Source: Desulfobacterales bacterium (lineage in GTDB: Bacteria; Desulfobacterota; Desulfobacteria; Desulfobacterales; UBA11574). From it: 44,271 nucleotides of DNA. Location of the stretch: assembly GCA_049583675.1 (NCBI GenBank), contig JBAUWG010000584.1:1-44271 (forward strand). The letters run 5' to 3'. A program made the position numbers and the translations under genes. Under the pieces are notes generated by a model. The model did not search any database, was not told where the DNA came from, and saw nothing but the letters and a program-made list of their open reading frames with translations. Positions 1 to 35,097 of the stretch are shown one piece after another. Each line of letters begins with the position of its first letter. The first letter of the stretch is position 1.

Positions 1-152
1 AACCCTCCAAGGCAGAGCATCTAACTCTGACTTGGCCCAGAGCGCAGATTTTCAGAACGAAATGTGTGGAGTCTTGAAAAAAGAAAGGGGGTGGAAAGGT
101 CAAATTCGTCATCACCAAACATATGAATACGTTAATGAATGAGGAGGTGGAA

Positions 153-1328
153 ATGAAAAAAAGTTCTCTGATCATCGTTACTGCGGCGGCGATTATCTGT
201 TTCATGCTGGGTTCATCACTGGGTTATAGTGCAGAGCCCATTAAAATTGCAGGAATATTTGCTCTAACCGGCCGTGCGGCGCATATCGGAACCGCACAAA
301 GAGATGCGGTTGTGATTGCCATTGATGAGGTGAACCAACAGGGCGGCATCAACGGCCGCAAGCTGGAAATGGTAATGGAAGATACGGAAAGCAACCCGAC
401 CAAAGCGGTTATGGCGCTGAAGAAGGTTTTAGAGTCCGAAGACGTGGTGGCCATTATCGGACCGACCCTCACCGGAACCGCCATGGCCATGAGGGGATTT
501 ATTGAAAAAGAAAAGATTCCCGCTTTCATGCATTCGGGCGGGGATGTAATTCTGCTGGCACCGCTCAATAAAAAGGATCCGAATTCGCGGCCTAAATGGA
601 CATTTAAATCGCCATATAAGGCGGCAGATGCCATGGGTAAGATCTGCCAGTACATGAGTCGGCACGGCATCAAAAAAATCGGATTTATCTATTCAGACGA
701 AGGGTTCGGCAAAGACGGACTCAGAAACGTAAAGATCCAGGCGCCAAAGTATCGAGTCACGGTGGTGGCGCAAGAGGCTTTTCAACCCAAAGATGTGGAT
801 ATGACGGCCCAGCTCACCCGCATTGAGGCAAAAGGCGTTGACGGGATCATCGCCTGGACCGTGGGGCCGGCCATGGGGATCATTGCTAAGAATGTCAAAC
901 AATTGGGTGTAAAATCGCCGTTGTTCGAATGTCACGGCGCCGGAGATCCCATTTTCTGGAAGGTTGCCGGAGAGGCCGGAGAAGGTGTTATGATGCCGTC
1001 TACTAAAATTGTGGTGGGCGATCAGCTTCCCGACAGCGATATTCAGAAAAAGAAAATTATCGACTATGTGAACGCCTATCGAAAAAAATTCAACCGTGAA
1101 CCCGGAACCATGGTGGCCTACGGGGCCGATGCCGCCTTTATCGTTGTGAATGCCATTAAAGAAGTAGGGCCCGACAGGACAAAAATTCGGGATGCCATCG
1201 AAAATACAAAAGGCTATGTTGGACTCAGTGGGATCTACAATATGAGCCCAATGGATCATAATGGTCTTTCTATGACAGACATTGTCATGATAAAGGCAAC
1301 CCAAGGGGGATGGAAACTGCTTAAATAA
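153..1328 (+). CDS. ABC transporter substrate-binding protein, Leu/Ile/Val-binding (LivJ/K-like) family
   Basis: Track ORF 123..1328. The preferred start is ATG 153 (MKKSSL...), 6 nt after GAGGAGG at 141-147. A hydrophobic signal peptide (IIVTAAAIICFMLGSSLGYSA) is followed by PIKIAGIFALTGRAAHIG and EVNQQGGINGRKLE, typical of the type-I periplasmic binding family. Confidence 0.85.
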   Translation: MKKSSLIIVTAAAIICFMLGSSLGYSAEPIKIAGIFALTGRAAHIGTAQRDAVVIAIDEVNQQGGINGRKLEMVMEDTESNPTKAVMALKKVLESEDVVAIIGPTLTGTAMAMRGFIEKEKIPAFMHSGGDVILLAPLNKKDPNSRPKWTFKSPYKAADAMGKICQYMSRHGIKKIGFIYSDEGFGKDGLRNVKIQAPKYRVTVVAQEAFQPKDVDMTAQLTRIEAKGVDGIIAWTVGPAMGIIAKNVKQLGVKSPLFECHGAGDPIFWKVAGEAGEGVMMPSTKIVVGDQLPDSDIQKKKIIDYVNAYRKKFNREPGTMVAYGADAAFIVVNAIKEVGPDRTKIRDAIENTKGYVGLSGIYNMSPMDHNGLSMTDIVMIKATQGGWKLLK

Positions 1329-1348
1329 ACGGTTCTATCAGGTACACG

Positions 1349-1378
1349 ATACTCCCCTTTCCAACGAAAGGGGAGTAT
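1349..1378 (+). terminator. Stem-loop after the binding-protein gene (intra-operon attenuator or terminator)
   Basis: ATACTCCCCTTTC (1349-1361), loop CAAC, GAAAGGGGAGTAT (1366-1378). This is a perfect 13-bp stem 21 nt after the stop codon. The downstream sequence is only moderately T-rich. Confidence 0.6.
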
Positions 1379-1563
1379 TGTAGTTTATTCGGTTTTGAAA
1401 AACCTCGTCCTTTGGGCTATGTAAGCGTTTTTTGGCTCTGCTGTGGGGTGTTGTATTAAAAATTACAACCAATAACTATCAATCCCGCTGCCAGGTGGGA
1501 CAAATCCCCTCAGGGGATAACTAACGCTGAGTCCTCTGGGCTCGGATTCTTTTGCTTATGGTT

Positions 1564-2451
1564 ATGGATTTTTCCCAGCAAATTGCGCAGTATATTATTA
1601 CCGGTTTGACCATCGGGGCCATTTACGCCATTGTGGCCATGGGATTTAATATCATTCATAATGCCACTGGAATCGTCAATTTTGCCCAGTGCGAGTTTAT
1701 ATCCCTTGGCGGCATGTTTATGTATTCGCTGGTGGTTTTATTCAAGGTCAATTTGGCCGTCTCATTTATCCTGTCCATGGTCGGCGTCGCCCTCATTGGC
1801 GCCCTGATAGAAATCGGCCCCATCAGACATGCCCGGTCAAAGGACATCATTATTCTTATTTTTTTAACCATCGGAATATCGGAAGTTATCCGGGGATCCG
1901 CCCAAGAGATTTGGGGAAGCGATAATGTCGGCGTTCCGTCATTTTCAGGCGACACCCCGATTCATCTATTAGGCGGAGCAACCATCGTTCCCCAGCATAT
2001 TTGGGTGTTTGCCATCACCGTCTTGGTCATGTTGATGCTGCATTATTTTTTCAAAAGAACATTAATGGGAAAAGCCATGCGGGCAACGGCGGTGAATCGG
2101 CGGGCGGCGGTCCTTACGGGGATTTGCGTGAATCGCATGATCCTTTTTTCTTTTGCCTTCAGCGGAGCGCTGGGGGCGGTGGCCGGAATGATCATCGCGC
2201 CCATTTCAACGACATCCTATGATACGGGCATCATGCTGGGTTTGAAAGGGTTTGCGGCAGCCATCTTAGGCGGTTACGGCAACTTCGCCGGCGCGATACT
2301 GGGCGGAATTATTTTGGGTATTTTGGAATCGCTGGGAGCGGGTCTCGTATCGTCACAATATAAGGATGCCATTGCATTTTTCGTTCTTCTTTTGGTGTTG
2401 TTTTTAAAACCAACGGGGATTATGGGGCATGGTGAATCGGAAAGAGTATAA
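1564..2451 (+). CDS. livH: Branched-chain amino acid ABC transporter permease (LivH family)
   Basis: Track ORF 1552..2451. The protein is polytopic and hydrophobic and collinear with the second LivH copy at 35098..35985. MDFSQQIAQYIITGLTIGAIYAI parallels the usual LivH N-terminus. The start is ambiguous (TTG 1552, ATG 1558, ATG 1564) and there is no clear RBS. Confidence 0.8.
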   Translation: MDFSQQIAQYIITGLTIGAIYAIVAMGFNIIHNATGIVNFAQCEFISLGGMFMYSLVVLFKVNLAVSFILSMVGVALIGALIEIGPIRHARSKDIIILIFLTIGISEVIRGSAQEIWGSDNVGVPSFSGDTPIHLLGGATIVPQHIWVFAITVLVMLMLHYFFKRTLMGKAMRATAVNRRAAVLTGICVNRMILFSFAFSGALGAVAGMIIAPISTTSYDTGIMLGLKGFAAAILGGYGNFAGAILGGIILGILESLGAGLVSSQYKDAIAFFVLLLVLFLKPTGIMGHGESERV

Positions 2452-2556
2452 TAGTTTCCCACCAGAAATTGCCCTTTTCCGCAATCTCTACGTCATTGGA
2501 AACTTATTTGTGTCCATATAGATTTATGGATGGACAACAGATAAGATATAAAAATA

Positions 2557-3522
2557 ATGAACATATTTTTTAAACATAAAGACATCTTCGGCTTCACCCT
2601 GCTGGCCGTTATGATCATTATCCTGCCGGTGTTTGTTAAGAGCAAATACTACTTCATCGTTCTTAATGTGATCGGTCTAAACACTATCGTGGTGGTGGGA
2701 CTTAATCTGCTGATCGGGTTTGCCGGGCAGATTTCATTGGGGCATGCGGCCTTCTACGGCCTGGGTTCGTACTTTTCGGGTATCCTTACGGTAAATTACG
2801 GATTCCCTTTATGGCCCGCGATGGTCGTGGGGATGCTGGCCACCGGTGTTGTCGCCTATTTGATCGGCTATCCTGCGTTAAAGCTTCGAGGCCACTATCT
2901 GGTCATGGCCACCTTGGGGTTCGGCATCATTGTAAATTTCCTTATGGGGGAGTTGGAGCAGTTCACCGGCGGACATGATGGTTTGATGGGTATTCCTCAT
3001 CTGTCCATCGGCGGCATGTTGTTTGATACGGATCTTAAAAACTTCTACCTGATCTGGGGGTTTGTTTTTGTGTCTATGCTGGCTGCCAGAAATCTTCTTA
3101 ACTCAAGAGTGGGCCGGGCATTGCGGGCAATTCACGGCAGTGAGGTGGCCGCAAACTCCCTGGGCGTCAATACCGCCGACTATAAGGTAAAGGTTTTTGT
3201 GCTCAGTGCCATGTTTGCGTCCATATCCGGCAGTCTTTATGCGCATTATATCACGTTTATCAGTCCCGGCTCTTACGATTTTTATTATTCCATCCAGGTT
3301 GTGACCATGGTCATCGTCGGGGGAATGGGAAGTCTTTGGGGTTCGCTTTTCGGTGCCGGAATTCTCACCTTTATTTCCGAAGCGCTTCATGTCGCCAAAC
3401 AATATCACGTCATTGCGTATGGCATTTTTTTGTGTCTGGTGCTTGTTTTTCTGCCGGAAGGGATCCTGGCGGGTATTTATAATTTTTTTGTAAGGAAAAA
3501 GACTCAAAAATTGTTAACCTGA
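2557..3522 (+). CDS. livM: Branched-chain amino acid ABC transporter permease (LivM family)
   Basis: 321-aa membrane protein with GQISLGHAAFYGLGSYFSG and PALKLRGHYLVMATLGFG motifs, shared with the LivM copy at 33953..34978 (GVLPLGHSAFVGIGAYTS, PTFKMRGAYFALATIAFG). Confidence 0.85.
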   Translation: MNIFFKHKDIFGFTLLAVMIIILPVFVKSKYYFIVLNVIGLNTIVVVGLNLLIGFAGQISLGHAAFYGLGSYFSGILTVNYGFPLWPAMVVGMLATGVVAYLIGYPALKLRGHYLVMATLGFGIIVNFLMGELEQFTGGHDGLMGIPHLSIGGMLFDTDLKNFYLIWGFVFVSMLAARNLLNSRVGRALRAIHGSEVAANSLGVNTADYKVKVFVLSAMFASISGSLYAHYITFISPGSYDFYYSIQVVTMVIVGGMGSLWGSLFGAGILTFISEALHVAKQYHVIAYGIFLCLVLVFLPEGILAGIYNFFVRKKTQKLLT

Positions 3523-10343: not shown

Positions 10344-10382
10344 AAAGGCCTTTGAAAAACGGTGAATTTTTCAAAGGCCTTT
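10344..10382. terminator. Bidirectional terminator hairpin between convergent genes (fmt-like and fdhA)
   Basis: AAAGGCCTTTGAAAAA (10344-10359), loop CGGTGAA, TTTTTCAAAGGCCTTT (10367-10382). This is a perfect 16-bp stem. It is flanked by an A-run and ATTTTTTA, so it has a U-tract on both strands. Confidence 0.8.
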
Positions 10383-10408: not shown

Positions 10409-12445
10409 TCAAGCGGCTTTTTCGATTTTTGCCGCACAGACTTTAAACTCCGGAATTTTGGCAATCGGATCAAAGGCGGAATTGGTCAGTATGTTGGCCG
10501 GACTTTCTGCAAAATGAAACGGAACGAAAAGCACGCCGGGCTTGACCTTTTTGCCGACTTGGGCAACAGCTTCCATCTCTCCCCTGCGGGTGGCAAGATG
10601 CACCCTGTCACCGTCATTAACGCCCAACGTTTTTGCGTCTTTTAGGTTGATTTCTACGTATCCGGTTTTCTGCTCGGTGTGCAAATGCGGGGAGACGCGC
10701 GTCATGGTGCCGGTATGGAAATGAGCGAACATCCTGCCGGTGGTGAGCCAATAGGGGTATTCGTCATCCGGCATCTCCGCAGGATCAAGATATTCAATGG
10801 CATGGAATAGGCCCTTTCCGCGGGTGAATTGATCTTTATGTAAAAACGGCGTACCCGGATGCTCGGCGTTCGGGCAGGGCCATTGAAGTCCGTCAAGACC
10901 TATCCTTTCATACGTCATTCCGCCGTAACTCGGTGTCAAAGCGGCCATTTCGTTAAAGATTTTTTCAGGACTCTCATAATTCATTTCATAGCCCATAGCT
11001 TTAGATAATCTGGAAATGATTTCCCAATCGTTAAGCGTATTTTCGATGGGATCAATGGCTTTATTCACCTTCATACAGCGTCGTTCGGTATTGGTAAATG
11101 TCCCTTCCTTTTCGGCCACCGAAACCCCGGCAAATACCACATCCGCCTTCTGTGCGGTTTCAGTGATATAAATATCCTGACACACCAGGAACTCAAGATT
11201 TGCAAGGGCCTTGTCGAGATGGTTCTGGTCTGGATCGCTTACTTTCGGATTCTCACCGATGACATAAAGGGCCTTTAATTTACCATCAATCATGGCTTGA
11301 ATCATATCGGTGACGGTATAACCAATCTTGTTCGAAAGCGGTTTTCCCCATGCTTTGGAAAATTTTTCAGTGTTGGCCTCAACGGTCACCGGCTGATAGG
11401 CAGGAAACACATTGGGCAAGCCGCCCATGTCGCAGGCGCCCTGAACATTGTTTTGGCCTCTCAAGGGATTCACACCGCCGCTTTTGACGCCCACATTTCC
11501 GCAAAGCATAGCGATATTGCAGCAGGATTTTACATTGTCCACGCCTGTGGTGTGCTGGGTAATCCCCATGGCATAGAGTAATGCTGCCGGGGAATTAGTG
11601 GCATAAAGCTCGGCCATTTTTTCAAGATCACTTTGCGCCACACCCGTGATGGTTTCAACCTTATCCGGTGTATACGACTCGACCACCGCCTTAAAATCAT
11701 CAAACCCCTCGGTTCTATTTTCAATGTAAGTTTTGTCGTGCCAGCCGTTCTTGAGAATAATATGCATCATGCCGTTAAGCAACGCCACATCACTCCCAAG
11801 TCTATGATGGACGACAACATCCGCAAAACGGGCCATCTGGATATCTCTGGGATCGGCCACAATGAGTTTGGCGCCTTTTTCCTTGGCCCTGAAGACACGC
11901 CGGGCAATGAGCGGATGGCACGCGGATGTGTTCGAACCGATGATAAAAATAGACGCTGAATCTTCAAATTCGGCAATGGAATTGGTCATGGCCCCACTTC
12001 CAAATGCAGCGGCAAGACCTGCCACCGTGGAGGAATGTCAGAGCCGGGCGCAGTGGTCCACATTGTTGGTCCCGATCACTGCTCTGGCAAATTTTTGGGC
12101 CAGGTAATTCTCTTCATTGGTGATTTTTGCGGAAGCCAGCACACCGACACTATCCGGCCCATGGTCATTAATGATGCTCTTGAATTTGTCGGCCGTCACT
12201 TGTATGGCCTCGTCCCATGTCACTTCCTGCAATTCTCCGTTCTTTTTTATCAAAGGTGATTTAAGACGCTTCTCGCTGACGACATGTTCATGAAGGTTCC
12301 ATCCCTTAATGCAGAGTCTTCCCTGGTTCACCGGATGGGTTTTCATGGGCATGGTATCAATAAGCCGGCCGTCCAGCACTTGAAAAAGGACACCGCAACC
12401 GGTGCCGCAATATGAACATGTTGAAGGAATGATTTTAAAATCCAT
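10409..12445 (-). CDS. fdhA: Formate dehydrogenase catalytic subunit, selenocysteine-containing, cytoplasmic (FdhF-like; Mo/W-bis-MGD)
   Basis: Track ORFs 12038..12445 and 10409..12025 are one gene. Reading the minus strand gives ...NNVDHCARL-TGA(12040-12038)-HSSTVAGLAAAFGSGAMTNS, the canonical FdhA Sec site. The N-terminal CSYCGTGCG...C motif binds a 4Fe-4S cluster. There is no twin-arginine signal. Total length is about 678 codons. Confidence 0.95.
12007..12027 (-). promoter_or_regulatory. SECIS-like hairpin for the fdhA UGA
   Basis: The minus-strand RNA is CGGUGGCA-GGUCU-UGCCGCUG. It forms an 8-bp stem (2 G.U pairs) with apical loop GGUCU, starting 10 nt after the UGA. The core GCAGGUCUUGC resembles the E. 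coli fdhF SECIS apex GCAGGUCUGC. Confidence 0.75.
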
Positions 12446-12543
12446 TCGTATCGCTCCTTATCGCGTTGAAAATTTTGGATTGGATATTGACGCCTTTTTA
12501 TGCCACGGCAAAAAAGGACCTCACCGCTTCAATCGTTGAGTCT

Positions 12544-13341
12544 TTAAATGGGTTTGGGTTTTAGTGTAACCTCTTCTCCCAGCATGTTAAACGGTGATTG
12601 GTCTGAACGGGTTCCGGTGGTGTAATCGAATACATCGGTTACGATTTCATTGACTTTTCGATAGAGCAGCCGCAAAGGAATATCAACCGGGCAGGCATCT
12701 TCGCACAGACCGCAATCAATACACCGGCCCCCCATATGAACCGCCCGAACCAGATGAAAAATCGGAACTTCCGGCGGAATACCGCCGGTGGCGATCAGGT
12801 CGGTGTGTTCAAGACTGCATTCCTTGCAAAAGCATACCGGACAAATATCGCGGCAGCCGTAACATTTGATGCATTTTTGAAGTTCATACATCCACCGGTT
12901 GAATCTTTCTTTCTGGTTGAATTCCTCTGCTGCTTTAACTTGCATGTTGTTGTCGATGCCGATCATCTTTTTAATTGGCGGGGCAAGCTCCGGCTCCAAA
13001 TAGGAACAATCGCCGTGTTCCTTGAGGGTGGACGGGCAGCAGTTAACTCCGATGGTTTTAATGTTTTCCGGGTTCAACTGGTTCCAGATATAAAGAACAT
13101 TCAAGGCCCGTTGATTGCAATCCCTTGTTAAAATTCCTATTTTCACTTCCTTATGTTCCGCGGCGATTTTTGTGGCCATTTTTTCAAGGGGATACCTAGC
13201 CTTTCCGACAATCAAATCATTAAGGTCATCCGGATTCTTTTTGGTGAAGCAATAGGGCAGCGGGTGCCCCTGAATCATTTTATATCCTAAAAATATGTCG
13301 ATGTGACCTTGTTCAAGCCACTGTTTGATTTGTTCCTGCAT
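12544..13341 (-). CDS. 4Fe-4S dicluster electron-transfer protein (AsrA / sulfhydrogenase-beta HydB-like)
   Basis: 265 aa. Motifs are CIKCYGCRDICPVCFCKEC (the CPxCxC signature of the AsrA/HydB-beta family) and CIDCGLCEDACPVDIP. The start codon lies 2 nt after the mvhD stop. Confidence 0.65.
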   Translation of the reverse strand: MQEQIKQWLEQGHIDIFLGYKMIQGHPLPYCFTKKNPDDLNDLIVGKARYPLEKMATKIAAEHKEVKIGILTRDCNQRALNVLYIWNQLNPENIKTIGVNCCPSTLKEHGDCSYLEPELAPPIKKMIGIDNNMQVKAAEEFNQKERFNRWMYELQKCIKCYGCRDICPVCFCKECSLEHTDLIATGGIPPEVPIFHLVRAVHMGGRCIDCGLCEDACPVDIPLRLLYRKVNEIVTDVFDYTTGTRSDQSPFNMLGEEVTLKPKPI

Positions 13342-13342
13342 A

Positions 13343-13825
13343 TCATCCTCCCTCTATGCTCGCAGTATCTTGCGCTGCTTCGCTTAAACTCATTACGGCG
13401 GACATGTCAAATTCGCCGGACAGAGGGCTGGGGCCTAATGATTTTATTTTATTTGTAAAATGGGTGACAACCTGCACAAATTTTTGGGCTTCTGCCGAAG
13501 ATATCCAGTCCAAATGCAGCCGGCCTTCCAATCCCATAAAGGCCAATAGTTCCTGCAGAAAGGTCATCCGTTTGATCGTCATGTAATTACCATACAGGTA
13601 ATGGCAGTCGCCGACATGTCACCCGCCCACCAGGACTCCGTCGGCACCGCTTTGAAAGGCTCTTAAAATGTGATGCGGCGACACCGTGGCGGAACACATG
13701 ACCCGAATAGGACGAATATTGGGCGGGTATGCCAGTCGACTGACACCCGCCAGGTCCGCCGCGCCGTAGGCACACCAGTTACACATAAATGCGATGATTT
13801 TCGGCTCGAATTTATCCTCGTTCAC
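13343..13825 (-). CDS. mvhD: MvhD/FlpD-type (methyl-viologen-reducing hydrogenase delta subunit-like) protein, selenocysteine-containing
   Basis: Track ORFs 13619..13825 and 13343..13582 join in frame through TGA 13621-13619. The joined sequence reads ...[19 protein letters not shown]...[58 protein letters not shown]... It matches the MvhD GCHxGDCHY core with Sec in place of the first Cys. Total length is 160 codons. Confidence 0.85.
13586..13602 (-). promoter_or_regulatory. SECIS-like hairpin for the mvhD UGA
   Basis: The minus-strand RNA is AUUACC-UGUAU-GGUAAU, a perfect 6-bp stem starting 16 nt after the UGA. It is short and AU-rich, so weaker than the other two. Confidence 0.45.
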
Positions 13826-13846
13826 ACTTTTCTCCTTTCCAACGGA

Positions 13847-16800
13847 TCAGGCGCTCAATGCGCTCTTGATCTGGGCGTAAAGTTGATTGTTGTTAAAGCC
13901 CATGAGTATGGGCGCCTCCGATGGGCATACCGCCGCGCAGGCACCGCACCCTTTGCACAGGGCCGCATTGACCTTGGCCACATATTCTTGACGGTCGAAA
14001 GTGATGGCGCCATAGGGGCAGACATTGATGCATCCCAGACAGCCCGAACACAATTCAGCCCGAATATCCGTGACAATGCCGCCCACCTTAATGCTCTCCA
14101 AGGACAGAACAGTTGCCGCTCTTGCCGCCGCCGCCTGGGCCTGGGCAATGCTTTCTTCGATGGGCTTGGGATAATGGGCCATGCCGCACAAAAAAATACC
14201 GTCATTGGCAAAATCTACCGGCCTCAATTTTTGATGGGCTTCCAAAAGCCATCCATCCGAATCCAGAGGGACTTTGAAGAGCTGGGCCAGCGATTGATCC
14301 CAATGGGAGACAATGGCGGAGGCCAAACATAAAATATCAGCTTTAACGGCCAATTTTCGGTTGAGTATCCGGTCCGTAAATTCAACGATAACCTGATCGC
14401 CGTTGGCCGTTACCTCGGGTTTTTGATCGACGGAGTACGAAAAAAAGAGCACCCCGGCCGCTCTTGCCTCGCGATATAAATCTTCTTTTTTACCGTATGT
14501 CCGAATATCCCTGTAGAGAATCGCAACATTTATATTTGGATTTCTTTTTTTAAAGTCAATAGCACTTTTGACGGAATGCGTACAGCAAACTTTGGAACAG
14601 TAAGGCCGCTCTTTATCTCTGGATCCCACACACTGAATAAACACTACATTTTCGCTCCGGTCAAGTCTCGGGTCGTTTTTTTTGAAAAGTTCGTCGAGTT
14701 CCAGCAGGGTCAACACAGCATGGTGTTTCCCATAAAGGTATTCGTCGGGTTTATATTCTTTGGCACCGGTGGCGATCACCGCCACGCCATGCTCGATGGT
14801 TTGTGTTGCGTTTTGGCTGTGAAGATCGGTTTTGAAGTTACCGACAAAGCCATCCACATTGCTGATGCTGGTTTCGGTATGAACGGTAATACGATCTTCG
14901 GATTTAACGGTATGAATCAGTGTTTCAACAAAAGCCCCTACATCTTCGTTTTGGGGGGTCTTGTTCAGCATTAAAGCATTTCCGCCCAAAGCGCCGGATT
15001 TCTCCACAAGATCCACCGGATATCCCTGATGTGCCAGCGAAACCGCGGCCGTCATTCCGGCAATTCCTCCGCCGATCACCAACGCGGAATGGGATACCGG
15101 GAGATCGGTCTGCTTCAGGGGCGCTAAAAGGTTGGTTTTCGCAACCGCCATTCGAATGAGGTCCTTGGCTTTTTCAGTGGCGGCGTCCGGATCGTTTGCA
15201 TGGACCCAGGAGTCATGATTCCGAATATTGGCCATTTCAAAGAGATACTTGTTGAGACCCGCGTTAATCAGGGTTTCCTGGAATAGCGGTTCATGGGTTT
15301 TGGGAGTGCAGGCGGCCACAACCACGCGGTTGAGCCCCTGTTGATTGATAATATCGGATATTTTATCCTGGGTATCCTGGCTGCAGCTGAAAAGATTTTC
15401 TTCGACATACACCACATTAGGCAAGGTTTTGGCGTACTTTACCACCTCCGGCACTTTGACCACGCCGCCGATGTTGATCCCGCAGTTGCATACGAACACG
15501 CCGATTTTAGGCGGTTCTTCGCAGACATCTCTTTCAGGGGGGAGTTCAAGGATTTTGGTCCGGGTATTGCGCGCCGATGCCAAGTGTTCTGTTGCCGCAC
15601 AGGCCGAGGCGCTGGCTTCCATCACCGACTGGGGAATATCTTTCGGGCCGGTGAACACACCGCAAGCATAGATGCCTTCCACAGAAGTCCCTACGGGATG
15701 GAAACTATCGGTTTTTGTAAAGCGGTATTCATCGAGATCGATGCCGATACGTTTGGAAAGATCTGCAATATCCTGATTGATTTCAAGGCCTACGGACAGA
15801 ACGAACATATCGAAAATTTCGTCTCTGATGGTTCCGTCCTCCTCGATGTATCGAACCGACACATCATCGGTTCCCGGAACCGGGGCAATGGTGTGAATTC
15901 GTGATCGGACGAATTTGACCCCTTGCCTCCTGGCATTCTCATAATATTTATCAAAATCTTTGCCGTGGGTTCGCATATCCATGTAAAAAACCGCGCAGTC
16001 GAGAGGGTTCTTACTGTGTTCCGTTGCGATGACGGTCTGTTTAATGGCATACATACAGCACACCGATGAACAGTAGGCATTATCACAACGGTTGAGGTCC
16101 CTGGAACCGACACATTGCAACCAACCGATTTTTTGAGGTTCCTTGTGATCGGATGGTCTGACCAAATGACCTGAAAAGGGTCCGGTGGCGGAGAGAATCC
16201 GTTCAAATTCCAAAGAGGTAACCACATTGGGCAGATGGGTATAGGCATAGGTGTCAAACCGGCTGGGGTCAAAGGCGTCAAATCCGGGGGCCAGGACAAT
16301 GGATCCAACGTCAAGCTCGACAATTTCATCTTTCTGTGAATGATCGATGGCGCCGACCGGACAAAAATCGGCGCATATCTTGCATTCGCCGGTCTTGAAA
16401 TGAACGCATTTGCTCCGGTCGATGGCGGGCGTATTGGGAACGGCTTGGGCATACGGCACATAGATCGGTTTCCGGCCTTTAAGACCGGCATCATATTCCG
16501 AGGGAATCTTTTTAACCGTGTAAGTGGTAATGTTATCTTTGATCTTATCCAGGGTAATGTGCCCTGTGGGGCAAACAGTAGCACAGGCGCCGCAAGCCAT
16601 ACAGACATCCGTCTGAATGTGAAAGGGGGTGTCCACTTTCATCTCCACCCCTCGGCCGGTGAGGCTGATGGCGCTGTTGCCCATTCTTTGACAGATTCTT
16701 GTACAGAGGCCGCAAAGGATGCAGGTGTCACCTTTAATCTTAAAGCGTGGTTTTTCGATACCGTATTTTGCCGCAAGCGCCTTTATGACAGGGATTTCCG

Positions 16801-17089
16801 GACAGCGGGCCAGCAACAACTCAACATTTAGTTTTCGACCTTCGTGTACTGTTTCCGTGTTGGTTTTGACTTCCATGCCTTCCCAGATGGGATAGTTGCA
16901 TGCGGTGACAAACCGAGTCCGGCGACCGTCAAAAAGCTCCACGGTGCAAAGTCGGCACATTCCGGCGGGCTCGAGTGCTTTATGATGACACAGCGTTGGA
17001 ATTTCAACCCCATATTTTTCAGCAACTTGAAGGATATACTGCCCTTCTTCTCCCTGAACTTTTTGTCCGTTGAGCTTAAACGTAATCAT
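13847..17089 (-). CDS. Multidomain FeS flavoprotein: HydA/NuoG-type N-terminus fused to a truncated HdrA unit and a second HdrA-like FAD unit
   Basis: 1080 aa.
- Residues 1-about 95: 2Fe-2S domain (MITFKLNGQKV...PTLCHH...GMCRLCTVEL).
- Two 4Fe-4S motifs (CILCGLCTRIC, CMACGACATVCPTGHI).
- HdrA inserted-ferredoxin second half and thioredoxin-reductase-fold core (RKPIYVPYAQAVP, CVHFKTGECKICADFCPVGAI, VGSIVLAPGF, LEFERILSATGPFSGH, WLQCVGSRD..YCSSVCCMYAIK, MDMRTHGKDF, YACGVFTGPKDIPQS).
- A Cys-rich domain (IGVFVCNCGINIGG...VVVAACTPKTHEPLF).
- A second complete FAD unit (ALVIGGGIAGMTAAVSLA...FIQCVGSRDKERPYCSKVCCTHSVK...GIFLCGMAHYPKPIEES).
- A C-terminal 2x4Fe-4S domain (CSGCLGCINVCP, CKGCGACAAVCP). 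Confidence 0.85.
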   Translation of the reverse strand: MITFKLNGQKVQGEEGQYILQVAEKYGVEIPTLCHHKALEPAGMCRLCTVELFDGRRTRFVTACNYPIWEGMEVKTNTETVHEGRKLNVELLLARCPEIPVIKALAAKYGIEKPRFKIKGDTCILCGLCTRICQRMGNSAISLTGRGVEMKVDTPFHIQTDVCMACGACATVCPTGHITLDKIKDNITTYTVKKIPSEYDAGLKGRKPIYVPYAQAVPNTPAIDRSKCVHFKTGECKICADFCPVGAIDHSQKDEIVELDVGSIVLAPGFDAFDPSRFDTYAYTHLPNVVTSLEFERILSATGPFSGHLVRPSDHKEPQKIGWLQCVGSRDLNRCDNAYCSSVCCMYAIKQTVIATEHSKNPLDCAVFYMDMRTHGKDFDKYYENARRQGVKFVRSRIHTIAPVPGTDDVSVRYIEEDGTIRDEIFDMFVLSVGLEINQDIADLSKRIGIDLDEYRFTKTDSFHPVGTSVEGIYACGVFTGPKDIPQSVMEASASACAATEHLASARNTRTKILELPPERDVCEEPPKIGVFVCNCGINIGGVVKVPEVVKYAKTLPNVVYVEENLFSCSQDTQDKISDIINQQGLNRVVVAACTPKTHEPLFQETLINAGLNKYLFEMANIRNHDSWVHANDPDAATEKAKDLIRMAVAKTNLLAPLKQTDLPVSHSALVIGGGIAGMTAAVSLAHQGYPVDLVEKSGALGGNALMLNKTPQNEDVGAFVETLIHTVKSEDRITVHTETSISNVDGFVGNFKTDLHSQNATQTIEHGVAVIATGAKEYKPDEYLYGKHHAVLTLLELDELFKKNDPRLDRSENVVFIQCVGSRDKERPYCSKVCCTHSVKSAIDFKKRNPNINVAILYRDIRTYGKKEDLYREARAAGVLFFSYSVDQKPEVTANGDQVIVEFTDRILNRKLAVKADILCLASAIVSHWDQSLAQLFKVPLDSDGWLLEAHQKLRPVDFANDGIFLCGMAHYPKPIEESIAQAQAAAARAATVLSLESIKVGGIVTDIRAELCSGCLGCINVCPYGAITFDRQEYVAKVNAALCKGCGACAAVCPSEAPILMGFNNNQLYAQIKSALSA

Positions 17090-17116
17090 GAATCTTAACC
17101 TTGTTGGTTCCGTGGA

Positions 17117-18970
17117 TTATTTAATGAGTATGGCATCGAATTTACAGGCATCGTAACAGATGCCGCACTTTATGCATTTTTCCACGTCTAAAAGGTGCGG
17201 TTTTTTCTTTTCACCGGTAATGGCTCCGTCGGGACATCGTTTTGCACAAAGGGCGCAGCCGGTGCAGGCTTCTTCATCAATCTCATAATGAAACAAAGGT
17301 TTACACACGCCCGCAGGACATTTTTTGTCTTTGATGTGGGCTTCATATTCATCCCGGAAATAGAGTATCGTCGTCAGCACGGGATTGGGGGCCGAAGTCC
17401 CCAGTCCGCAAAGTGAAAACTTTTGAATCATCATCCCAAGATTTTCCAAAAGCTCGATATCGCCTTCTTTGCCGTTTCCTTGGCAAATATCGGTCAGGAT
17501 ATCCAGCATCGCCGTAATCCCCTCACGGCAGGGATTACATTGACCGCAAGATTCTTCTTTTAGAAAATCCAGAAAATATCGGGCCACGTCCACCATGCAT
17601 GTGTCCTGATCCATCACAATCATGCCGCCGGAGCCCATGATGGAACCGACCTTTGTCAGCTCATCAAAATCGACCCCCAAATTTAAAAATTGTTCCGGAA
17701 TGCATCCTCCCGACGGTCCCCCGGTCTGGACGGCTTTGAATTTCTTTTTGTTTGGAACCCCGCCGCCGATGTCGTAAATAATCGTGCGCAGCGTCGTCCC
17801 CATCGGCACTTCGACCAACCCCGTGTTTGTGACCTTGCCGACCAGTGAAAAGATTTTGGTGCCTTTGCTTCTCTGAGTTCCGATGGCAGCATACCAATCC
17901 GCACCCTTGTCGATAATCACCGGCACATTGGCCCAGGTTTCGACGTTGTTCAAATTCGACGGGTTATTTCGGAATCCTTTTTCTACGGTATGGATGTATT
18001 TGGCCCGGGGTCGTCCGGGCATCCCCTCCAGAGACGCCATCAATGCGGTGGATTCACCGCACACAAAAGCGCCCCCGCCGCGACTGATATGAATGTTTAA
18101 ATCGAATCCAGAGCCCATGATATTCTTGCCCAGAAATCCGAGTTCTTCAGCTCGCCGCAAGGCAATAGATAAATTTTTTACCGCCAGCGGATATTCGTGT
18201 CGTACATAGACATAGCCTTCATTGGCGCCGATGGCAACGGCACCGATAATCATACCTTCCAAAACCAAATGAGGGTTGCCTTCCAAGAGACTGCGATCCA
18301 TATAAGCGCCGGGATCGCCTTCATCGGCATTGCAGATGACATACTTGTCGCCGTCATGCCTGCGACAGGTTTCCCACTTGATGCCGGTGGGGAAACCACC
18401 GCCGCCGCGACCCCTCAAGCCGGATTTTTTGACTTGATCGACAATTTCTTCGGGCGTCATATCAAACACTGCTTTTTCAAGCGCTTTATATCCGCCCACC
18501 GCAATATAGTCTTCAATGCTGGTAGGGTCGATGGCGCCGTTATTCCCAAAAATAATTCTCTGCTGAAGTTTGTAAAAAGAAACATCCTTTTCATGTATAA
18601 TTTTTTCTTTTGTCGCAGGATCCTTATAAACGAGCGACGGAACCAGTTCCCCATTCTTGATAGTTTTTTCAACAATTTCAGGAATATGTTCCTCTTTAAT
18701 TTGTGGATAAAATATGCCTTCCGGATGAATCACCAAAATCGGTCCTTTCTCGCAGAAACCGTGGCAACCTGAAAGCTTTACATCCACCTCCTTTTCCAAA
18801 CCATGCTTGGCCAACTCTTGAATTAACGAATCATGCACTTTTGCAGTTCCATAGGCACCACATCCCGAACCTGCACAAAGAGAAATTAATTTCTTTTTCC
18901 GGCTTTTTTGTTCAGTCAAAAGAGAGTTTCGATATGACTCCAGTGCCAATCTATTTTCTAATTTTGCCAT
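17117..18970 (-). CDS. NuoF/HydB-like NAD(P)H-binding FMN flavoprotein with N-terminal 2Fe-2S and C-terminal 2x4Fe-4S domains (Bfu/HndC architecture)
   Basis: 617 aa. Motifs: a thioredoxin-like 2Fe-2S domain (CAGSGCGAYG...SGCHGFCEKGP), GLRGRGGGGFPTGIKW, ICNADEGDPGAYMDR, ESCGQCNPCREG, and terminal CTGCALCAKRCP and CIKCGICYDACK. Confidence 0.9.
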   Translation of the reverse strand: MAKLENRLALESYRNSLLTEQKSRKKKLISLCAGSGCGAYGTAKVHDSLIQELAKHGLEKEVDVKLSGCHGFCEKGPILVIHPEGIFYPQIKEEHIPEIVEKTIKNGELVPSLVYKDPATKEKIIHEKDVSFYKLQQRIIFGNNGAIDPTSIEDYIAVGGYKALEKAVFDMTPEEIVDQVKKSGLRGRGGGGFPTGIKWETCRRHDGDKYVICNADEGDPGAYMDRSLLEGNPHLVLEGMIIGAVAIGANEGYVYVRHEYPLAVKNLSIALRRAEELGFLGKNIMGSGFDLNIHISRGGGAFVCGESTALMASLEGMPGRPRAKYIHTVEKGFRNNPSNLNNVETWANVPVIIDKGADWYAAIGTQRSKGTKIFSLVGKVTNTGLVEVPMGTTLRTIIYDIGGGVPNKKKFKAVQTGGPSGGCIPEQFLNLGVDFDELTKVGSIMGSGGMIVMDQDTCMVDVARYFLDFLKEESCGQCNPCREGITAMLDILTDICQGNGKEGDIELLENLGMMIQKFSLCGLGTSAPNPVLTTILYFRDEYEAHIKDKKCPAGVCKPLFHYEIDEEACTGCALCAKRCPDGAITGEKKKPHLLDVEKCIKCGICYDACKFDAILIK

Positions 18971-19000
18971 GGTATTATATAACCTCCGTACCCATGCCGC

Positions 19001-19486
19001 TTAAGAAACGTGTTGGTTATCATATTCATCGATGATTTTTACCACACTGGAACGGTTTAAGCCTCCGTGGGTATTCTGATTGACGGTGATAACCGGCCCG
19101 GAGGCGCAGCACCCGACACATCGAACAGCTTCAAGGGTAAACAGATGATCATCGGTGGTTTCGCTCTCTTTGACATGGAGGCGATTTTCCAACGCTTCCA
19201 TAATTTTTTCAGCACCTCGTACATGGCACGCCGTGCCGGTGCAGACGCTGACGATGTATGTTCCGCGAGGTTCAAGGCTGATCGTCTTATAAAAGGTGGC
19301 AACGCTGTAAACCAGGCTTGGCTTTATGCCAAGCTTATCGACCAGAACAGATACCACTTCCGGCGGAACATAGTGATAAATGTCACTGATATCCTGCATT
19401 ATCATCAACAAGGCTTCACGATCATTATGATACGCTTCGATAATTTCGTCTATCTTCTGCCAATCGATGTCCATTTTATTTTCCAT
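19001..19486 (-). CDS. NuoE/HydC-like 2Fe-2S thioredoxin-fold subunit
   Basis: 161 aa with ALLMIMQDI..YVP, VCTGTACHVRGAEKI and CVGCCASGPVITVN motifs. A GGGG-type RBS lies upstream. Confidence 0.9.
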   Translation of the reverse strand: MENKMDIDWQKIDEIIEAYHNDREALLMIMQDISDIYHYVPPEVVSVLVDKLGIKPSLVYSVATFYKTISLEPRGTYIVSVCTGTACHVRGAEKIMEALENRLHVKESETTDDHLFTLEAVRCVGCCASGPVITVNQNTHGGLNRSSVVKIIDEYDNQHVS

Positions 19487-19619
19487 AATGGAACACCCCT
19501 TATCAATTGAGGCAAAAAAGGTTAAATTTCACATAACATATTCAGTCAAGATTGTTCGAACAAGCAAAACGGGATTTGAGAACAAATAAAAATTATTACA
19601 GATAGTAACAGCAATATAA

Positions 19620-20003
19620 TTAACCGTGTGCCTGATACATCACCGGACAGTTTTCAACGCAATTACCGCATCCCGTGCAAAGGTCCATGTTGATGCTGCG
19701 AGCATGCTTTCTAACCTTTACTTTAAAATGCCCTGCAGATCCTTCAACAGATTCTAGATCCGCATATGTGATAATCTCAATATTCAGATGCCGGCCGACC
19801 TCGACCAGTTTCGGGGAGATAATTCACATGGCGCAATCATTGGTGGGGAACGTCTTGTCCAGTTGGGACATTACCCCGCCGATGGAAGGGGATTTTTCTA
19901 CGAGATAGACGTAATATCCTGCGTTGGCGAGATCCAGAGCGGATTGCATCCCTGCAATTCCACCCCCTAAAACCAGAACCGATCCGATTACATCATTGGC
20001 CAT
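19620..20003 (-). CDS. hdrA: HdrA N-terminal fragment protein (FAD GxGxxG fold plus Sec site plus one 4Fe-4S motif), selenocysteine-containing; not in the supplied ORF track
   Basis: Codon-by-codon translation of the minus strand from ATG 20003 gives [60 protein letters not shown](TGA 19826-19824)[70 protein letters not shown](19622-19620). The RBS GGAGGA (20016-20011) lies 7 nt upstream. The context TFPTxDCxM-U-I matches the known HdrA Cys/Sec position. Confidence 0.8.
19791..19808 (-). promoter_or_regulatory. SECIS-like hairpin for the hdrA-fragment UGA
   Basis: The minus-strand RNA is CUGGUCG-AGGU-CGGCCGG. It forms a 7-bp stem (2 G.U pairs) with a GGU-containing tetraloop, starting 15 nt after the UGA. 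Confidence 0.6.
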
Positions 20004-20326
20004 CGTTCGATCCTCCTTAAAAAGAACGGTGTTGAGGGAATTCCCCTTATTGTTGTTGAAAAAATCAAAGGTTTTACCTATAAGAAATAGTAAAATTTGT
20101 CAATAAAATTCTATGGGTAAGACAATGTGATATGCCCGGAAGTCTCTGTTTTCACATAAAAGACTGATTGCTGAAGAATTGGATCCGAGAGTCCGGTCAA
20201 TATTTTGTTTTTTTGCAGTCGTTTTTCTTTTTGTGAAACCGTATCTTTCAATTGGATGGAAATTATGCTACAAGTCCTCTATTTGAATGAAAGGGTATAT
20301 ATAAACATTATTTTAAAGGTTCTATC

Positions 20327-20965
20327 ATGACACAAAATGACGATGACAGGATGGATAGGTTTGGGCCGGATCCGAATGATGTTAATGATAACGAGCAATA
20401 TTCGCTATTCAAAGAGAAAAGGAAAGTGAACTTCGGACCGAACTCTCCCAAAATTTCTCAAAAAATCCCTTTTTCGAAATTGGGTGTCGGATTTTTAATG
20501 CTGATAATTTTAGTGCTTTTGTTGTTTGTTAGAAACAAGATGGCCGGGTTTGAAAACAGGATCAATGCATTGGAACATCGTGTAAAGAGTGTTGAAGAAA
20601 AAGATCAGCAGCTGGATGCAATACGTTACGGTATGGCAAAAATGGGAGAACTGTCCCAATCGGTCGAACAGCTTAATGTCCGCTTGGATCACTCTGAAAA
20701 AAGTTTGACGTCTAGGATGGACCAGATTTCAAAAGCATTTGAAATGCTCAAACAACAGACTCTCAAGGAAGGAATACGAAAAGAAAAACCGTCAAAAACA
20801 TCCAAAAACGCGGCGAGGAACCGCTATCACATTGTTAAATCCGGTGAAACACTCTATACCATTGCCCGCCGGTATGGCGTGACAGTGAAAGAATTACAAA
20901 AAATCAATAAACTGAGTGGCGGCGGCGTCATACATACGGGTCAAAAACTTTTAATAAATCCTTGA
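20327..20965 (+). CDS. LysM domain-containing membrane-anchored protein
   Basis: 212 aa. It has one TM segment (VGFLMLIILVLLLFV), a coiled-coil-like middle region and a C-terminal LysM domain (YHIVKSGETLYTIARRYGVTVKELQKINKLSGGGVIHTGQKLLI). Confidence 0.8.
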   Translation: MTQNDDDRMDRFGPDPNDVNDNEQYSLFKEKRKVNFGPNSPKISQKIPFSKLGVGFLMLIILVLLLFVRNKMAGFENRINALEHRVKSVEEKDQQLDAIRYGMAKMGELSQSVEQLNVRLDHSEKSLTSRMDQISKAFEMLKQQTLKEGIRKEKPSKTSKNAARNRYHIVKSGETLYTIARRYGVTVKELQKINKLSGGGVIHTGQKLLINP

Positions 20966-25299: not shown

Positions 25300-25315
25300 A
25301 GCAATCCTTGTGCCA
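25300..25315 (-). promoter_or_regulatory. Sigma-54 (-24/-12) promoter reading towards the zinc-ribbon gene, dksA and hup
   Basis: The reverse complement of 25298-25318 is TTTTGGCACAAGGATTGCTAT. This gives TGGCAC-N5-TTGCT with exact consensus spacing, about 220 nt upstream of the zinc-ribbon start. Confidence 0.7.
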
Positions 25316-25645: not shown

Positions 25646-27040
25646 TTATTTAAACGCTTCTTTTCGAAGCCCGTGTTTTTTCATCAACTTGTTTAGCTGA
25701 CGCGAGCTGATGCCGGCGACCTCTGCCGTATCTTTTATTTTTCCACTTTTTTGAGAAAGGATTTCCTTAAGATACAACCTTTCGACATTTTCGACTGCTT
25801 TTCGTCTCACTTCTTCCAAAGTAAAGGAAGTGCTGACTTTTAAATGTGTAGAAGCTTCGTCGGTACCAAATAGTTCACAAGGAAAGCTTTCCGGGGTCAG
25901 CATATGCGTCGTTTCCAATATATAGGCTCGTTCCACGAGATTTTCCAGTTCTCTTATGTTGCCCGGCCACTTGTATTTATTAAACGCCTCTATTATTCGC
26001 GGATGAATGCCGCGAATTTTTTTTTGATGAAATTTGTTCATTTTTTTCAAAAATATTTCCGCGAGAAAAGGGATGTCCTCTTTTCTGTCTGTAAGGGTCG
26101 GAATCTCGATGGGGAAAACATTCAGCCGGTAATATAGATCTTTTCTGAATGTTCCTTCATCGCACATGGCTTTAAGATCCATATTGGTTGCAGCAATTAT
26201 TCTCACATTCGAGCTGATGATTTCTTCCCCCCCCACACGCTCAAAGATACCATCTTGAAGCACCTGTAAAATTTTTATTTGTGACGCCGGAGAAATGGTG
26301 CCAATTTCATCAAGAAAGATGGTGCCCCCTTTAGCAATTTCGAATTTGCCGAGTTTGCGTCTTATTGCACCGGTAAAGGCCCCTTTTTCATGACCGAAAA
26401 GCTCACTTTCAATAAGGTTGTCCGGGATTGCTCCGCAGTGAACACTGATAAACTTTTCATTCATTCGATGGCTGTGTCTATGTATCAGCTTTGCCAATAC
26501 CCCTTTTCCTGTTCCGGTTTCTCCAACAATCAATACAGTACTTTTGGTAGGAGCAACGGAACGCACTTTGTCAAAAACCAGCTTCATTTGCGGACTTCTA
26601 GTTTGAACAAGTTCTAACGTATCGGATTTCCAAAATTTATCCCTTAGGTAATCCAGCTCCGACTGAACGATGAGGAATTCATGTAAATTTTCAATGGTGT
26701 GTTTGACTTCTTCGGGATTAAAGGGAAAGGTCAGGTAGTCGCTGGCACCTGCTTTCACAGCGATGACGGCATCGCGAATAGTTTCCTGGGCAGCGACAAC
26801 AATGACTTCAACGGATGGAGAAATATTCCAGAAACGGTGAAGTGTATCAGCGTAGCCATTGGTCGTTTCTGAACGCAATGCTTCTATGGGAACCAAAATA
26901 ATATCATATCGCTTTCCACTGAGCAGTTCCAGCGCTTGTTCCAAGCGTTGTCCATGATCTATCTTGTATCCCGAGTTCAGAATCTTCCGAATGGTTTTAT
27001 ATTGATCTTGATTTGAGGTGATAAAAAGTATCGATTTCAT
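25646..27040 (-). CDS. Sigma-54-dependent transcriptional activator (NtrC/Fis family) with a degenerate receiver domain
   Basis: 464 aa. The AAA+ core has VLIVGETGTGKGVLA (Walker A), GAFTGA, TIFLDEIG (Walker B) and RKDLYYRLNV. The C-terminal HTH is AEVAGISSRQLNKLMKKHGL. The N-terminal CheY-like fold lacks the acidic pocket. Confidence 0.9.
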   Translation of the reverse strand: MKSILFITSNQDQYKTIRKILNSGYKIDHGQRLEQALELLSGKRYDIILVPIEALRSETTNGYADTLHRFWNISPSVEVIVVAAQETIRDAVIAVKAGASDYLTFPFNPEEVKHTIENLHEFLIVQSELDYLRDKFWKSDTLELVQTRSPQMKLVFDKVRSVAPTKSTVLIVGETGTGKGVLAKLIHRHSHRMNEKFISVHCGAIPDNLIESELFGHEKGAFTGAIRRKLGKFEIAKGGTIFLDEIGTISPASQIKILQVLQDGIFERVGGEEIISSNVRIIAATNMDLKAMCDEGTFRKDLYYRLNVFPIEIPTLTDRKEDIPFLAEIFLKKMNKFHQKKIRGIHPRIIEAFNKYKWPGNIRELENLVERAYILETTHMLTPESFPCELFGTDEASTHLKVSTSFTLEEVRRKAVENVERLYLKEILSQKSGKIKDTAEVAGISSRQLNKLMKKHGLRKEAFK

Positions 27041-32250: not shown

Positions 32251-32543
32251 GCTCATCCTCTTCATTTTTTAAACAAAAATCCTGGCCAAGGGGCCGTTCC
32301 AGAAGAAATTTGCTTTACTGAGTGTTCGTTTTAGAAAATCAGAAATAGGAATTGGAAAATAGATAACTGCGTATGGACGTAAATATAATTAGAAGATGAG
32401 GAGGTTAGGAAGTTAGAAGTTTGGAAATCACGTAAATGTGCTGACCTTCTAATCTTCTTGCTTTCTTATTTTTCGAAATATTTGTGTTCATTCGTATTCA
32501 TCCATGCTTTCCTCTTTCCTTTTTGCTCTTTTCTATTAGGAAC

Positions 32544-35081: not shown

Positions 35082-35097
35082 GGCTTCCAGTTTATGC

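Follow-up and report, generated by a model that had tools for sequence, protein, structure and literature searches.

This analysis concerns an operon in a 44,271-nucleotide (nt) stretch of DNA from a Desulfobacterales bacterium (GCA_049583675.1, contig JBAUWG010000584.1, positions 1-44,271; the whole stretch is called the window). Seven intact, co-directional genes, g1 to g7, lie at 20003..10409 on the minus strand (Table 1). In the order of transcription they encode an N-terminal piece of HdrA, a NuoE-like protein, a long NuoF-like protein, a large fusion protein, an MvhD-type adaptor, an iron-sulfur (FeS) protein derived from FdhB, and FdhA, the catalytic subunit of a formate dehydrogenase (FDH). 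The gaps between the genes are, from g1 to g7, 133, 30, 27, 21, 1 and 98 nt. This tightly spaced gene set had been recognized in a preliminary description made from the sequence alone, and Pfam and NCBIfam profile calls recover every domain that was named there. The survey of gene neighborhoods that it proposed finds the seven-gene order again on independent contigs, and the arrangement is therefore not due to chance.

HdrA split around an NADH/ferredoxin module

The HdrA sequence is divided between g1 and g4. The g1 product contains the GxGxxG motif for binding of flavin adenine dinucleotide (FAD), the pair C57-x2-U60, in which U is selenocysteine (Sec), and the first CxxCxxCxxxCP motif of the inserted ferredoxin domain; it corresponds to positions 138-257 of the NCBIfam HdrA2 profile (profile length 777; E = 1.1e-47). 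Residues 194-505 of g4 correspond to positions 256-562 of the same profile, and g1 followed by g4 is collinear on this one profile and on unsplit homologs. In the unsplit homolog L021 the sequence "...CIACGTCAEKCPKKTDDIYNERLIQRKAIYVPY...CIYFKKGKCKACEKFCP..." runs on uninterrupted; when g4 is aligned to it, the HdrA sequence picks up again at "IPSEYDAGLKGRKPIYVPY...CVHFKTGECKICADFCP", after the end of g1. The inserted ferredoxin domain is cut between its two Cys motifs, and within the cut are encoded nuoE, nuoF and the N-terminal domain of g4.

The domain calls bear out the earlier view of g4 as a fusion of a HydA/NuoG-like N terminus with HdrA and an HdrA-like part. Residues 1-180 form a NuoG/HydA-N/BamI-like domain with one [2Fe-2S] (Fer2_4) and two [4Fe-4S] clusters. 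Residues ~195-505 are the rest of the first HdrA unit, with the second ferredoxin motif (C228..C243) and the thioredoxin reductase (TrxR)-like core with its C..CC cluster. Residues 521-1080 are a second HdrA unit, which has an N-terminal Cys domain, a second FAD domain and a C-terminal 2x[4Fe-4S] domain and lacks both a ferredoxin insert and a CxxC/U pair. HdrA (8rvu_a, 2.2e-152) is among the top PDB matches of g4, which also maps onto 9mqx_A. The set of HdrA hallmarks (TrxR-like FAD domain with C..C..CC [4Fe-4S] site, inserted ferredoxin, N-terminal Cys and C-terminal ferredoxin domains) is complete, yet spread over g1 and the two units of g4. Together g1 and g4 constitute a covalent HdrA pseudo-dimer with complementary domain loss.

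Both half-ferredoxin Cys motifs, in g1 and in g4, are invariant in homologs. Residues 123-173 of g4 already make up a complete 2x[4Fe-4S] domain, shared with HydA (8a6t_A) and the NuoG-like chain 9mqx_A, so that C228-C243 is an orphan half whose natural partner is C109-C119 of g1. A phmmer alignment offered C163-C173 of g4 as the partner instead; we rejected this as the principal interpretation because C123-C133 and C163-C173 form a complete domain by themselves and because the g1 motif is kept without change in every split locus. The preliminary description rightly identified g1 as the N terminus of HdrA, but "fragment" understates it: by homology, g1 is the N-terminal piece of one HdrA unit that continues in g4 rather than a leftover. 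Since it is conserved, the split-gene architecture is most probably functional.

Subunits, selenocysteine codons and operon borders

The proteins encoded in the cut resemble an electron-bifurcating module, as the earlier assignment to a NuoEF (Bfu)-type module held. The g2 product is a NuoE/HydC/BamG-like [2Fe-2S] subunit (PF01257, 2Fe-2S_thioredx, E = 1.3e-47; NuoE/HoxE families). The g3 product has an N-terminal thioredoxin-like [2Fe-2S] domain, the flavin mononucleotide (FMN)/NADH site (Complex1_51K), SLBB and NADH_4Fe-4S domains and a C-terminal 2x[4Fe-4S] domain, and along its entire length it matches HydB-type subunits of bifurcating enzymes (7t2r_B, 1.5e-239; 9mqx_B; 8a6t_B; and StnB, 8oh5_B). 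Residues 1-180 of g4 match 9mqx_A and HydA (8a6t_A) and represent a BfuA-like feeder; PDB entry 9mqx itself consists of NuoG-like and NuoF-like chains. The BfuB/HydB and BfuC/HydC subunits of the BfuBC core are accordingly present together with a feeder, and g2, g3 and the g4 N terminus are classified as a HydBC/Bfu-type NADH/ferredoxin module, for which bifurcating activity is predicted.

On the formate side, the g7 product is assigned to FdhA by TIGR01591 (841 bits, above the cutoff of 666) and contains Molybdop_Fe4S4 ([4Fe-4S]), Molybdopterin and Molydop_binding domains for a Mo/W-bis-pyranopterin guanine dinucleotide cofactor. Among solved structures it is closest to the FdhA of an archaeal Fdh-Hdr complex (9t1s_L, E = 9.6e-244). 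The protein opens straight at the Cys motif with no twin-arginine leader, in agreement with the cytoplasmic location given before. The g5 product is an MvhD/VhuD-type [2Fe-2S] adaptor of the short form (PF02662, FlpD, E = 5.9e-49); it aligns end to end with a 140-aa MvhD, and its PDB matches include 5odc_D (E = 4.2e-49) and the MvhD chains 8rvu_F and 7bkb_F of Fdh-Hdr complexes. The g6 product had been labeled an AsrA/HydB-type dicluster protein. It is indeed an FeS protein, but the family label was less precise than its matches to the FeS part of methanogen FdhB allow (9t1s_M, 5.8e-32; also 8rvu_E and 7bkb_E). Residues 64-102 align with FdhB 87-125 and residues 139-250 with FdhB 271-377; about 145 residues of FdhB, the F420/FAD part, have no counterpart, and no FrhB/FdhB Pfam domain is found in g6 at E <= 0.01. 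The protein is better described as a truncated FdhB, presumably a flavin-less FeS subunit.

Three of the seven genes contain an in-frame TGA that had been read as a Sec codon. In the homologous loci that we fetched, the position is occupied by TGA in 77 cases and by a Cys codon in 4 for g1, by 63 and 9 for mvhD, and by 17 and 0 for fdhA. Alternation of TGA and Cys codons at one position is a classical Sec/Cys signature, and by this pattern (for fdhA, TGA throughout) the three codons very probably specify Sec. In the fdhA gene a selenocysteine insertion sequence (SECIS) hairpin matches SECIS_3 with 53.3 bits and E = 2.7e-10, below the gathering score of 63; the hairpin is retained in 16 sequences, with one AU<->CG exchange. 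Hairpins after the UGA of g1 and mvhD are weakly supported, single-sequence folds being no better than shuffles and consensus folds of 59-72 sequences retaining just 3-4 pairs, so that for these two genes Sec is assigned from the TGA/Cys pattern. The mvhD reading frame is broken into 68 + 64 aa in relatives.

Table 1. Coordinates of the operon genes and associated features in the window
Feature	Positions	Strand	Remarks
g1, hdrA N-terminal piece	20003..19620	-	127 aa
g2, nuoE-like	19486..19001	-	161 aa
g3, long nuoF	18970..17117	-	617 aa
g4, fusion protein	17089..13847	-	1080 aa
g5, mvhD	13825..13343	-	160 aa; GTG start
g6, FeS protein (FdhB-derived)	13341..12544	-	265 aa
g7, fdhA	12445..10409	-	678 aa
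g1 Sec codon UGA	19824..19826	-	context DCAM-U-IISP
mvhD Sec codon UGA	13619..13621	-	context VGG-U-HVGDC
fdhA Sec codon (12038-12040) with SECIS hairpin	11985..12043	-	context CARL-U-H; Rfam RF01989
Possible sigma-70 promoter, TTGACA-17 nt-TAGGTA	20075..20103	-	~70 nt upstream of g1 ATG; direct sequence reading
16-bp inverted repeat, terminator-like hairpin	10344..10382		between convergent fdhA and fmt

The g1 start codon is preceded at 7 nt by a AAGGAGGA ribosome-binding site. The candidate sigma-70 site upstream of it was missed by a consensus scan because its second hexamer lacks the final T. A sigma-54 promoter was considered for g1 because sigma-54 activators flank the operon in relatives, and was rejected, there being no match in 20004-20330. 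The sole perfect sigma-54 consensus, TGGCACAAGGATTGCT at 25300-25315 (-), lies just downstream of a sigma-54 activator/response-regulator gene (25646-27040, -), and a one-mismatch site at 39077-39092 (-) lies below a second sigma-54 activator gene (39303-41060). The terminator reported at the end of the operon is present, with a T-run that is clear on the plus strand and weak on the minus strand. The gap between g1 and nuoE (19487-19619, -) is AT-rich, and a gap of similar size recurs in relatives; it contains no terminator-like site and no Rfam match, and in this gap and the 98-nt gap before fdhA Rfam detected no riboswitch or other RNA besides the fdhA SECIS. No tRNA-Sec or other tRNA was found in the window. 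Elsewhere in the window are two Liv/Urt-type ATP-binding cassette (ABC) transporter sets of binding protein, permeases and ATPases, at 123-3522 and 32544-37326, the latter adjoining a class-III aminotransferase gene.

Relatives and known systems

More than 120 clusters of full-length g4 homologs exist, annotated merely as "HdrA" or "FAD-dependent oxidoreductase". Among 80 species-representative loci, the unsplit fusion is found in 42, ten of which go on with mvhD-fdhB'-fdhA, and the split arrangement g1-nuoE-nuoF-g4 in 35, none of which has FdhA. The split arrangement with FdhA occurs only in the clade of the window, on at least 7 distinct contigs (L081-L083, including the metagenome-assembled genome GCA_022340885.1, L087, L088, L090, L091 and L093, the last of which is missing the stretch upstream of g4); L089, which ends within g6, and L092, which begins within g4, are probable further cases. 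Independent contigs with as little as ~79% g4 identity still have the seven-gene operon, in differing upstream contexts. The upstream genes in L087 (1-6853) and L089 (207-6781) encode PAS histidine kinases, a sigma-54 activator and a response regulator, and in the window there is a LysM gene; regulation may therefore differ between lineages.

Across split loci g1 is the best-conserved segment (78-97% identity), and in all Desulfobacterales split loci it ends 5-17 aa past the CP motif. In L047 (309-1190), L049 and L051, from Desulfobacca/Thermodesulfobacteriota, a single open reading frame (ORF) encodes g1, Sec codon included, joined in frame to NuoE. In HdrL-type proteins (L038:10088-14520, L063, L073-L076, L094, L095) the two Cys motifs of the ferredoxin insert, between which the window has its gene split, are separated by an in-frame GltD/NfnB-like NADPH module, and in L038, L094 and L095 the HdrL gene is followed by mvhD-fdhB'-fdhA. 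The ferredoxin insert of HdrA is thus a place where NAD(P)H modules have been inserted repeatedly.

Other relatives attach different partners. L084 (5689-23167; likewise L085 and L086) has two tandem split-HdrA modules. In the first, NuoF and GltD are fused into a protein of 1103 aa; after this module come a 590-aa HdrC/E-like FeS protein with a nitrate-reductase-gamma-like (heme-b-type) segment and then a CCG protein, and mvhD is absent. Downstream of the second are mvhD and g6, the FdhB remnant. The L084 ortholog of g4, 82% identical, stands directly before the HdrC/E-like and CCG proteins. In L002 (13300-17247; split, no FdhA) the module is followed by mvhD, FeS proteins of 315 and 357 aa, an FAD/NAD-binding [2Fe-2S] protein, all three of which are Flx-like, and DsrC, an order that suggests a link between the same chassis and the electron flow of sulfite reduction.

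Identities calculated segment by segment change within g4. From g1 to g4 residue ~260 the window is ~75-89% identical to split loci and ~49-66% identical to unsplit FdhA-linked loci. From g4 residue ~270 through g7, the best match is to the unsplit FdhA-linked loci, with 65-74% for g4 521-1080, 69-89% for g5, 50-75% for g6 and 68-73% for g7; against split loci, g4 521-1080 and g5 show 52-58% and g6 23-28%, and fdhA is absent there. These segment-wise identities, which are not a formal phylogeny, are consistent with a breakpoint inside g4 (~260-280) and a mosaic origin by module exchange.

Before the 2026 structure of the ring-reducing class II benzoyl-CoA reductase (BCRII), we know of no oxidoreductase in which two different flavin-based bifurcation modules had been found. 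BCRII, Bam[(BC)2DEFGHI]2 from Geobacter metallireducens and Desulfosarcina cetonica ("Bam-Bfu" in PMC9304861), is called exceptional by its authors (bioRxiv 10.64898/2026.04.10.717634). Its BamGHI is a HydBC-type confurcating module, which the Sec-containing MvhD-type adaptor BamF couples to BamE (bioRxiv 10.64898/2026.04.10.717634; PMC9304861). In BamE two HdrA units are fused, of which unit 1 holds the bifurcating FAD, with the Cys59-Cys62 pair adjacent; the inserted ferredoxin domain feeds BamC/BamB, and BamD is the high-potential exit (bioRxiv 10.64898/2026.04.10.717634). The operon shares this chassis. BamG, BamH and BamI correspond to g2, g3 and the g4 N terminus, and from its Cys motifs the module of the window is predicted to have the cluster complement of BamGHI, three [2Fe-2S], five [4Fe-4S] and FMN. 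BamE, compared by its description alone, corresponds to g1 plus g4, with the CxxC/U pair and the inserted ferredoxin domain in unit 1, and the Sec position of g1 would correspond to the Cys59-Cys62 pair (bioRxiv 10.64898/2026.04.10.717634). The Sec-containing BamF corresponds to g5, and the catalytic end of both systems is a pterin enzyme with an FeS partner.

The operon also differs from BCRII. Where BCRII has the tungsten-dependent aldehyde:ferredoxin oxidoreductase (AOR) BamB with BamC, the window has FdhA and a truncated FdhB; there is no BamD (HdrBC/HdrD-like) and hence no encoded high-potential exit. The short g5 does not have the ~100-aa winged-helix extension with which BamF contacts BamI. 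The BamI-like domain of the window is fused to HdrA, and its HdrA gene is split in the inserted ferredoxin domain, with nuoE and nuoF in the cut, so that the module junction is probably elsewhere than in BCRII. Judged by its genes, the locus is not a Bam enzyme. An AOR-family (tungstopterin) gene at 30469-32265 (-), ~10 kb away, adjoins genes for S-adenosylmethionine decarboxylase and spermidine synthase; it was considered as a BamB and rejected, having only a generic AOR hit, polyamine-synthesis and ABC-transporter neighbors and no apparent connection with the FDH operon.

The locus is equally close to the archaeal FdhAB-MvhD-HdrABC complexes, in which the HdrA flavin receives mid-potential electrons from formate (PDB 7bkb, 8rvu, 9t1s). 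FdhA, the FeS part of FdhB, MvhD and HdrA are all homologous to those of the window. The window lacks HdrBC, its FdhB lacks the F420/FAD part, its HdrA is a covalent pseudo-dimer, and a HydBC-type NADH/ferredoxin module has been added. A third comparison is with the NAD+/ferredoxin-dependent Bfu-family FDH HylABC-FdhF2 of Gottschalkia acidurici and Clostridium autoethanogenum ("Fdh-Bfu" in PMC9304861), which shares the predicted net reaction of formate/CO2 with NAD(P)H and ferredoxin and the BfuB/BfuC core; there the FDH is wired straight to BfuA, whereas the window interposes the HdrA dimer and MvhD.

At the level of annotation, the same gene families have been described in HdrL and HdrA-MvhD-FdhB-FdhA loci of Desulfobacterium autotrophicum HRM2 (PMC2702500), in HdrBCA-MvhD-FdhBA loci of Desulfobacula toluolica and marine Chloroflexi (PMC5736913), and in nuoEFG-mvhD-hdrA clusters of Desulfotignum phosphitoxidans (PMC4046663). 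Unsplit and HdrL-type FDH-linked relatives were recovered here as well (L021, L038 and others). None of the published loci pairs a NuoEF-split HdrA with FdhA, and HdrL has a GltD-like NAD(P)H module fused in frame where the window has the nuoEF cut. The preliminary description had not recognized the subunit combination as a characterized enzyme. The pairing of two bifurcation-module types does have a characterized precedent in BCRII, but that judgment stands for the FDH version lacking HdrBC/BamD, of which no description was found in the literature searched, although an earlier mention in reviews may exist.

A predicted formate dehydrogenase complex

A soluble FDH/CO2 reductase joining NuoEF (Bfu)-type and HdrA-type flavin modules, as first proposed, is still the reading best supported by the homologies and the conservation. 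From these, together with the split and the fusions in relatives, we infer that g1-g7 form one soluble complex coupling formate/CO2 reversibly to NAD(H) and ferredoxin, and we put the probability of this at roughly 0.55. It would be a cytoplasmic, selenium-dependent FDH/CO2 reductase supercomplex with two types of bifurcation module in series, as in BCRII. Electrons would pass from FdhA (Sec, Mo/W-pterin) through the FeS clusters of g6 and MvhD (Sec) to the FAD of HdrA unit 1, as in archaeal Fdh-MvhD-Hdr complexes. Unit 1 would be assembled from g1 and g4 ~195-505 and form a BamE-like covalent pseudo-dimer with unit 2. The inserted ferredoxin domain, which is the low-potential arm in HdrA/BamE, would be rebuilt in trans from g1 C109-C119 and g4 C228-C243 and run covalently into the BamI-like FeS domain, on which the g3/g2 NADH/ferredoxin module would dock. 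We place g2 and g3 at the ferredoxin insert because of the gene-fusion topology, the NuoE fusions in relatives and the co-inheritance of g1-g3 with g4 1-260. Physical linkage is present in g4 itself, which fuses the BfuA-like domain to HdrA. For FdhA, g6 and MvhD alike, the best-matching solved structures belong to Fdh-MvhD-Hdr complexes, whose HdrA chains also rank among the top matches of g4.

Several points weigh against this proposal. No HdrBC, BamD or CCG-domain high-potential output is encoded in the window; the absence of HdrB/HdrC had been remarked on, and no CCG-domain protein is found among window ORFs of at least 200 aa. A canonical HdrA bifurcation would therefore be short of one acceptor. 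The recipients of electrons from BamI in BCRII are the C-terminal ferredoxin domain and BamF, and the inserted domain is not among them (bioRxiv 10.64898/2026.04.10.717634). The wiring that we propose thus departs from the sole solved precedent and relies on fusion topology and co-inheritance. A Bfu module alone, of the HylABC-FdhF2 type, could couple formate, NAD and ferredoxin, which would leave the need for HdrA unexplained, and the 133-nt (g1-g2) and 98-nt (g6-g7) gaps could harbor internal promoters. The operon neighbors in the window are housekeeping genes and give no clue to the direction of the reaction, which may be formate oxidation as part of acetyl-CoA oxidation or CO2 reduction during autotrophic growth. 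As to the missing exit, it is possible that the HdrA unit serves as a one-/two-electron converter, with the HydBC module performing the energetic coupling; alternatively, a partner encoded elsewhere may take the high-potential electron, as the contexts of L084 and L002 hint.

The second of these options leads to the most serious alternative, which we consider rather unlikely: that the same complex runs a BCRII-like two-stage reaction and needs a separately encoded high-potential acceptor, such as an HdrBC/BamD-like protein, DsrC, electron-transferring flavoprotein (ETF) or a quinone-linked protein. NADH and reduced ferredoxin would be confurcated at g2/g3, the HdrA FAD would bifurcate to FdhA (CO2) and to the acceptor, and the flow would reverse when formate is oxidized. 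HdrA-type bifurcation requires a high-potential branch. In BCRII this is provided by BamD/ETF (bioRxiv 10.64898/2026.04.10.717634). Candidate proteins do follow the chassis in relatives, the HdrC/E-like FeS and CCG proteins of L084 in the same gene string as mvhD and g6, and the Flx-like proteins and DsrC in L002, a split locus without FdhA. Nevertheless, neither the operon nor the 44-kb window has an acceptor gene, the operon is conserved without one across several genomes, and the CO2/formate potential is not beyond that of ferredoxin, so that a two-stage boost is not obviously needed.

It is improbable that one transcript encodes two separate enzymes, an NADH/ferredoxin NuoEF-HdrA enzyme (g1-g4) and an FdhA-FdhB'-MvhD enzyme feeding free ferredoxin or another carrier. 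The differing nearest relatives on either side of the g4 breakpoint, and the occurrence of the g1-g4 module with other partners, would agree with such a division. To our knowledge, however, MvhD is known only as an adaptor bound to HdrA. The breakpoint, moreover, falls inside g4, so that the FDH-linked part includes HdrA unit 2, which shares a polypeptide with the NuoG-like domain, and g5 begins 21 nt past g4 and g6 1 nt past g5. That g1 is a decaying pseudogene, or a scar of assembly or rearrangement that left a broken hdrA beside an unrelated nuoEF, is very hard to credit: it may look like a short fragment with a TGA, of which automatic gene callers give only 59 aa, but it is the best-conserved segment in dozens of independent assemblies, its TGA is replaced by a Cys codon in some loci, it has a ribosome-binding site of its own, a constant end point in Desulfobacterales split loci and in-frame NuoE fusions elsewhere, and it supplies exactly what g4 is missing.

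With the single FDH complex as the preferred reading, a wider and more tentative idea can be offered. The inserted ferredoxin domain of HdrA might be a general socket that wires NAD(P)H modules to the low-potential flavin arm, a GltD-like module in HdrL and, in the window, the NuoE-NuoF-NuoG' module, around which two polypeptides would restore the ferredoxin domain in trans. On this view the operon would specify the first FDH with HydBC-type and HdrA-type sites in series and no heterodisulfide-reductase-like output. If this idea is true, there is a second, widespread class of double bifurcation besides benzoyl-CoA reductase, and the formate step of the Wood-Ljungdahl pathway could owe its energetics to it in complete-oxidizing sulfate reducers.

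As far as we have found, an operon for a putative FDH-linked HydBC and HdrA tandem complex, with a conserved split-gene architecture, is new and uncharacterized. The split gene is a natural test case for a [4Fe-4S] ferredoxin domain built from two chains, and the operon is a defined, conserved seven-gene target for heterologous expression and cryo-electron microscopy. The chassis of HydBC, fused HdrA and MvhD is common in the Desulfobacterales and related orders, and its catalytic ends are exchangeable: FDH in the window, Flx-like/DsrC or HdrBC-like modules in other loci. The FDH version would be relevant to the balance of NADH, ferredoxin and formate/CO2 in complete-oxidizing or autotrophic sulfate reducers.

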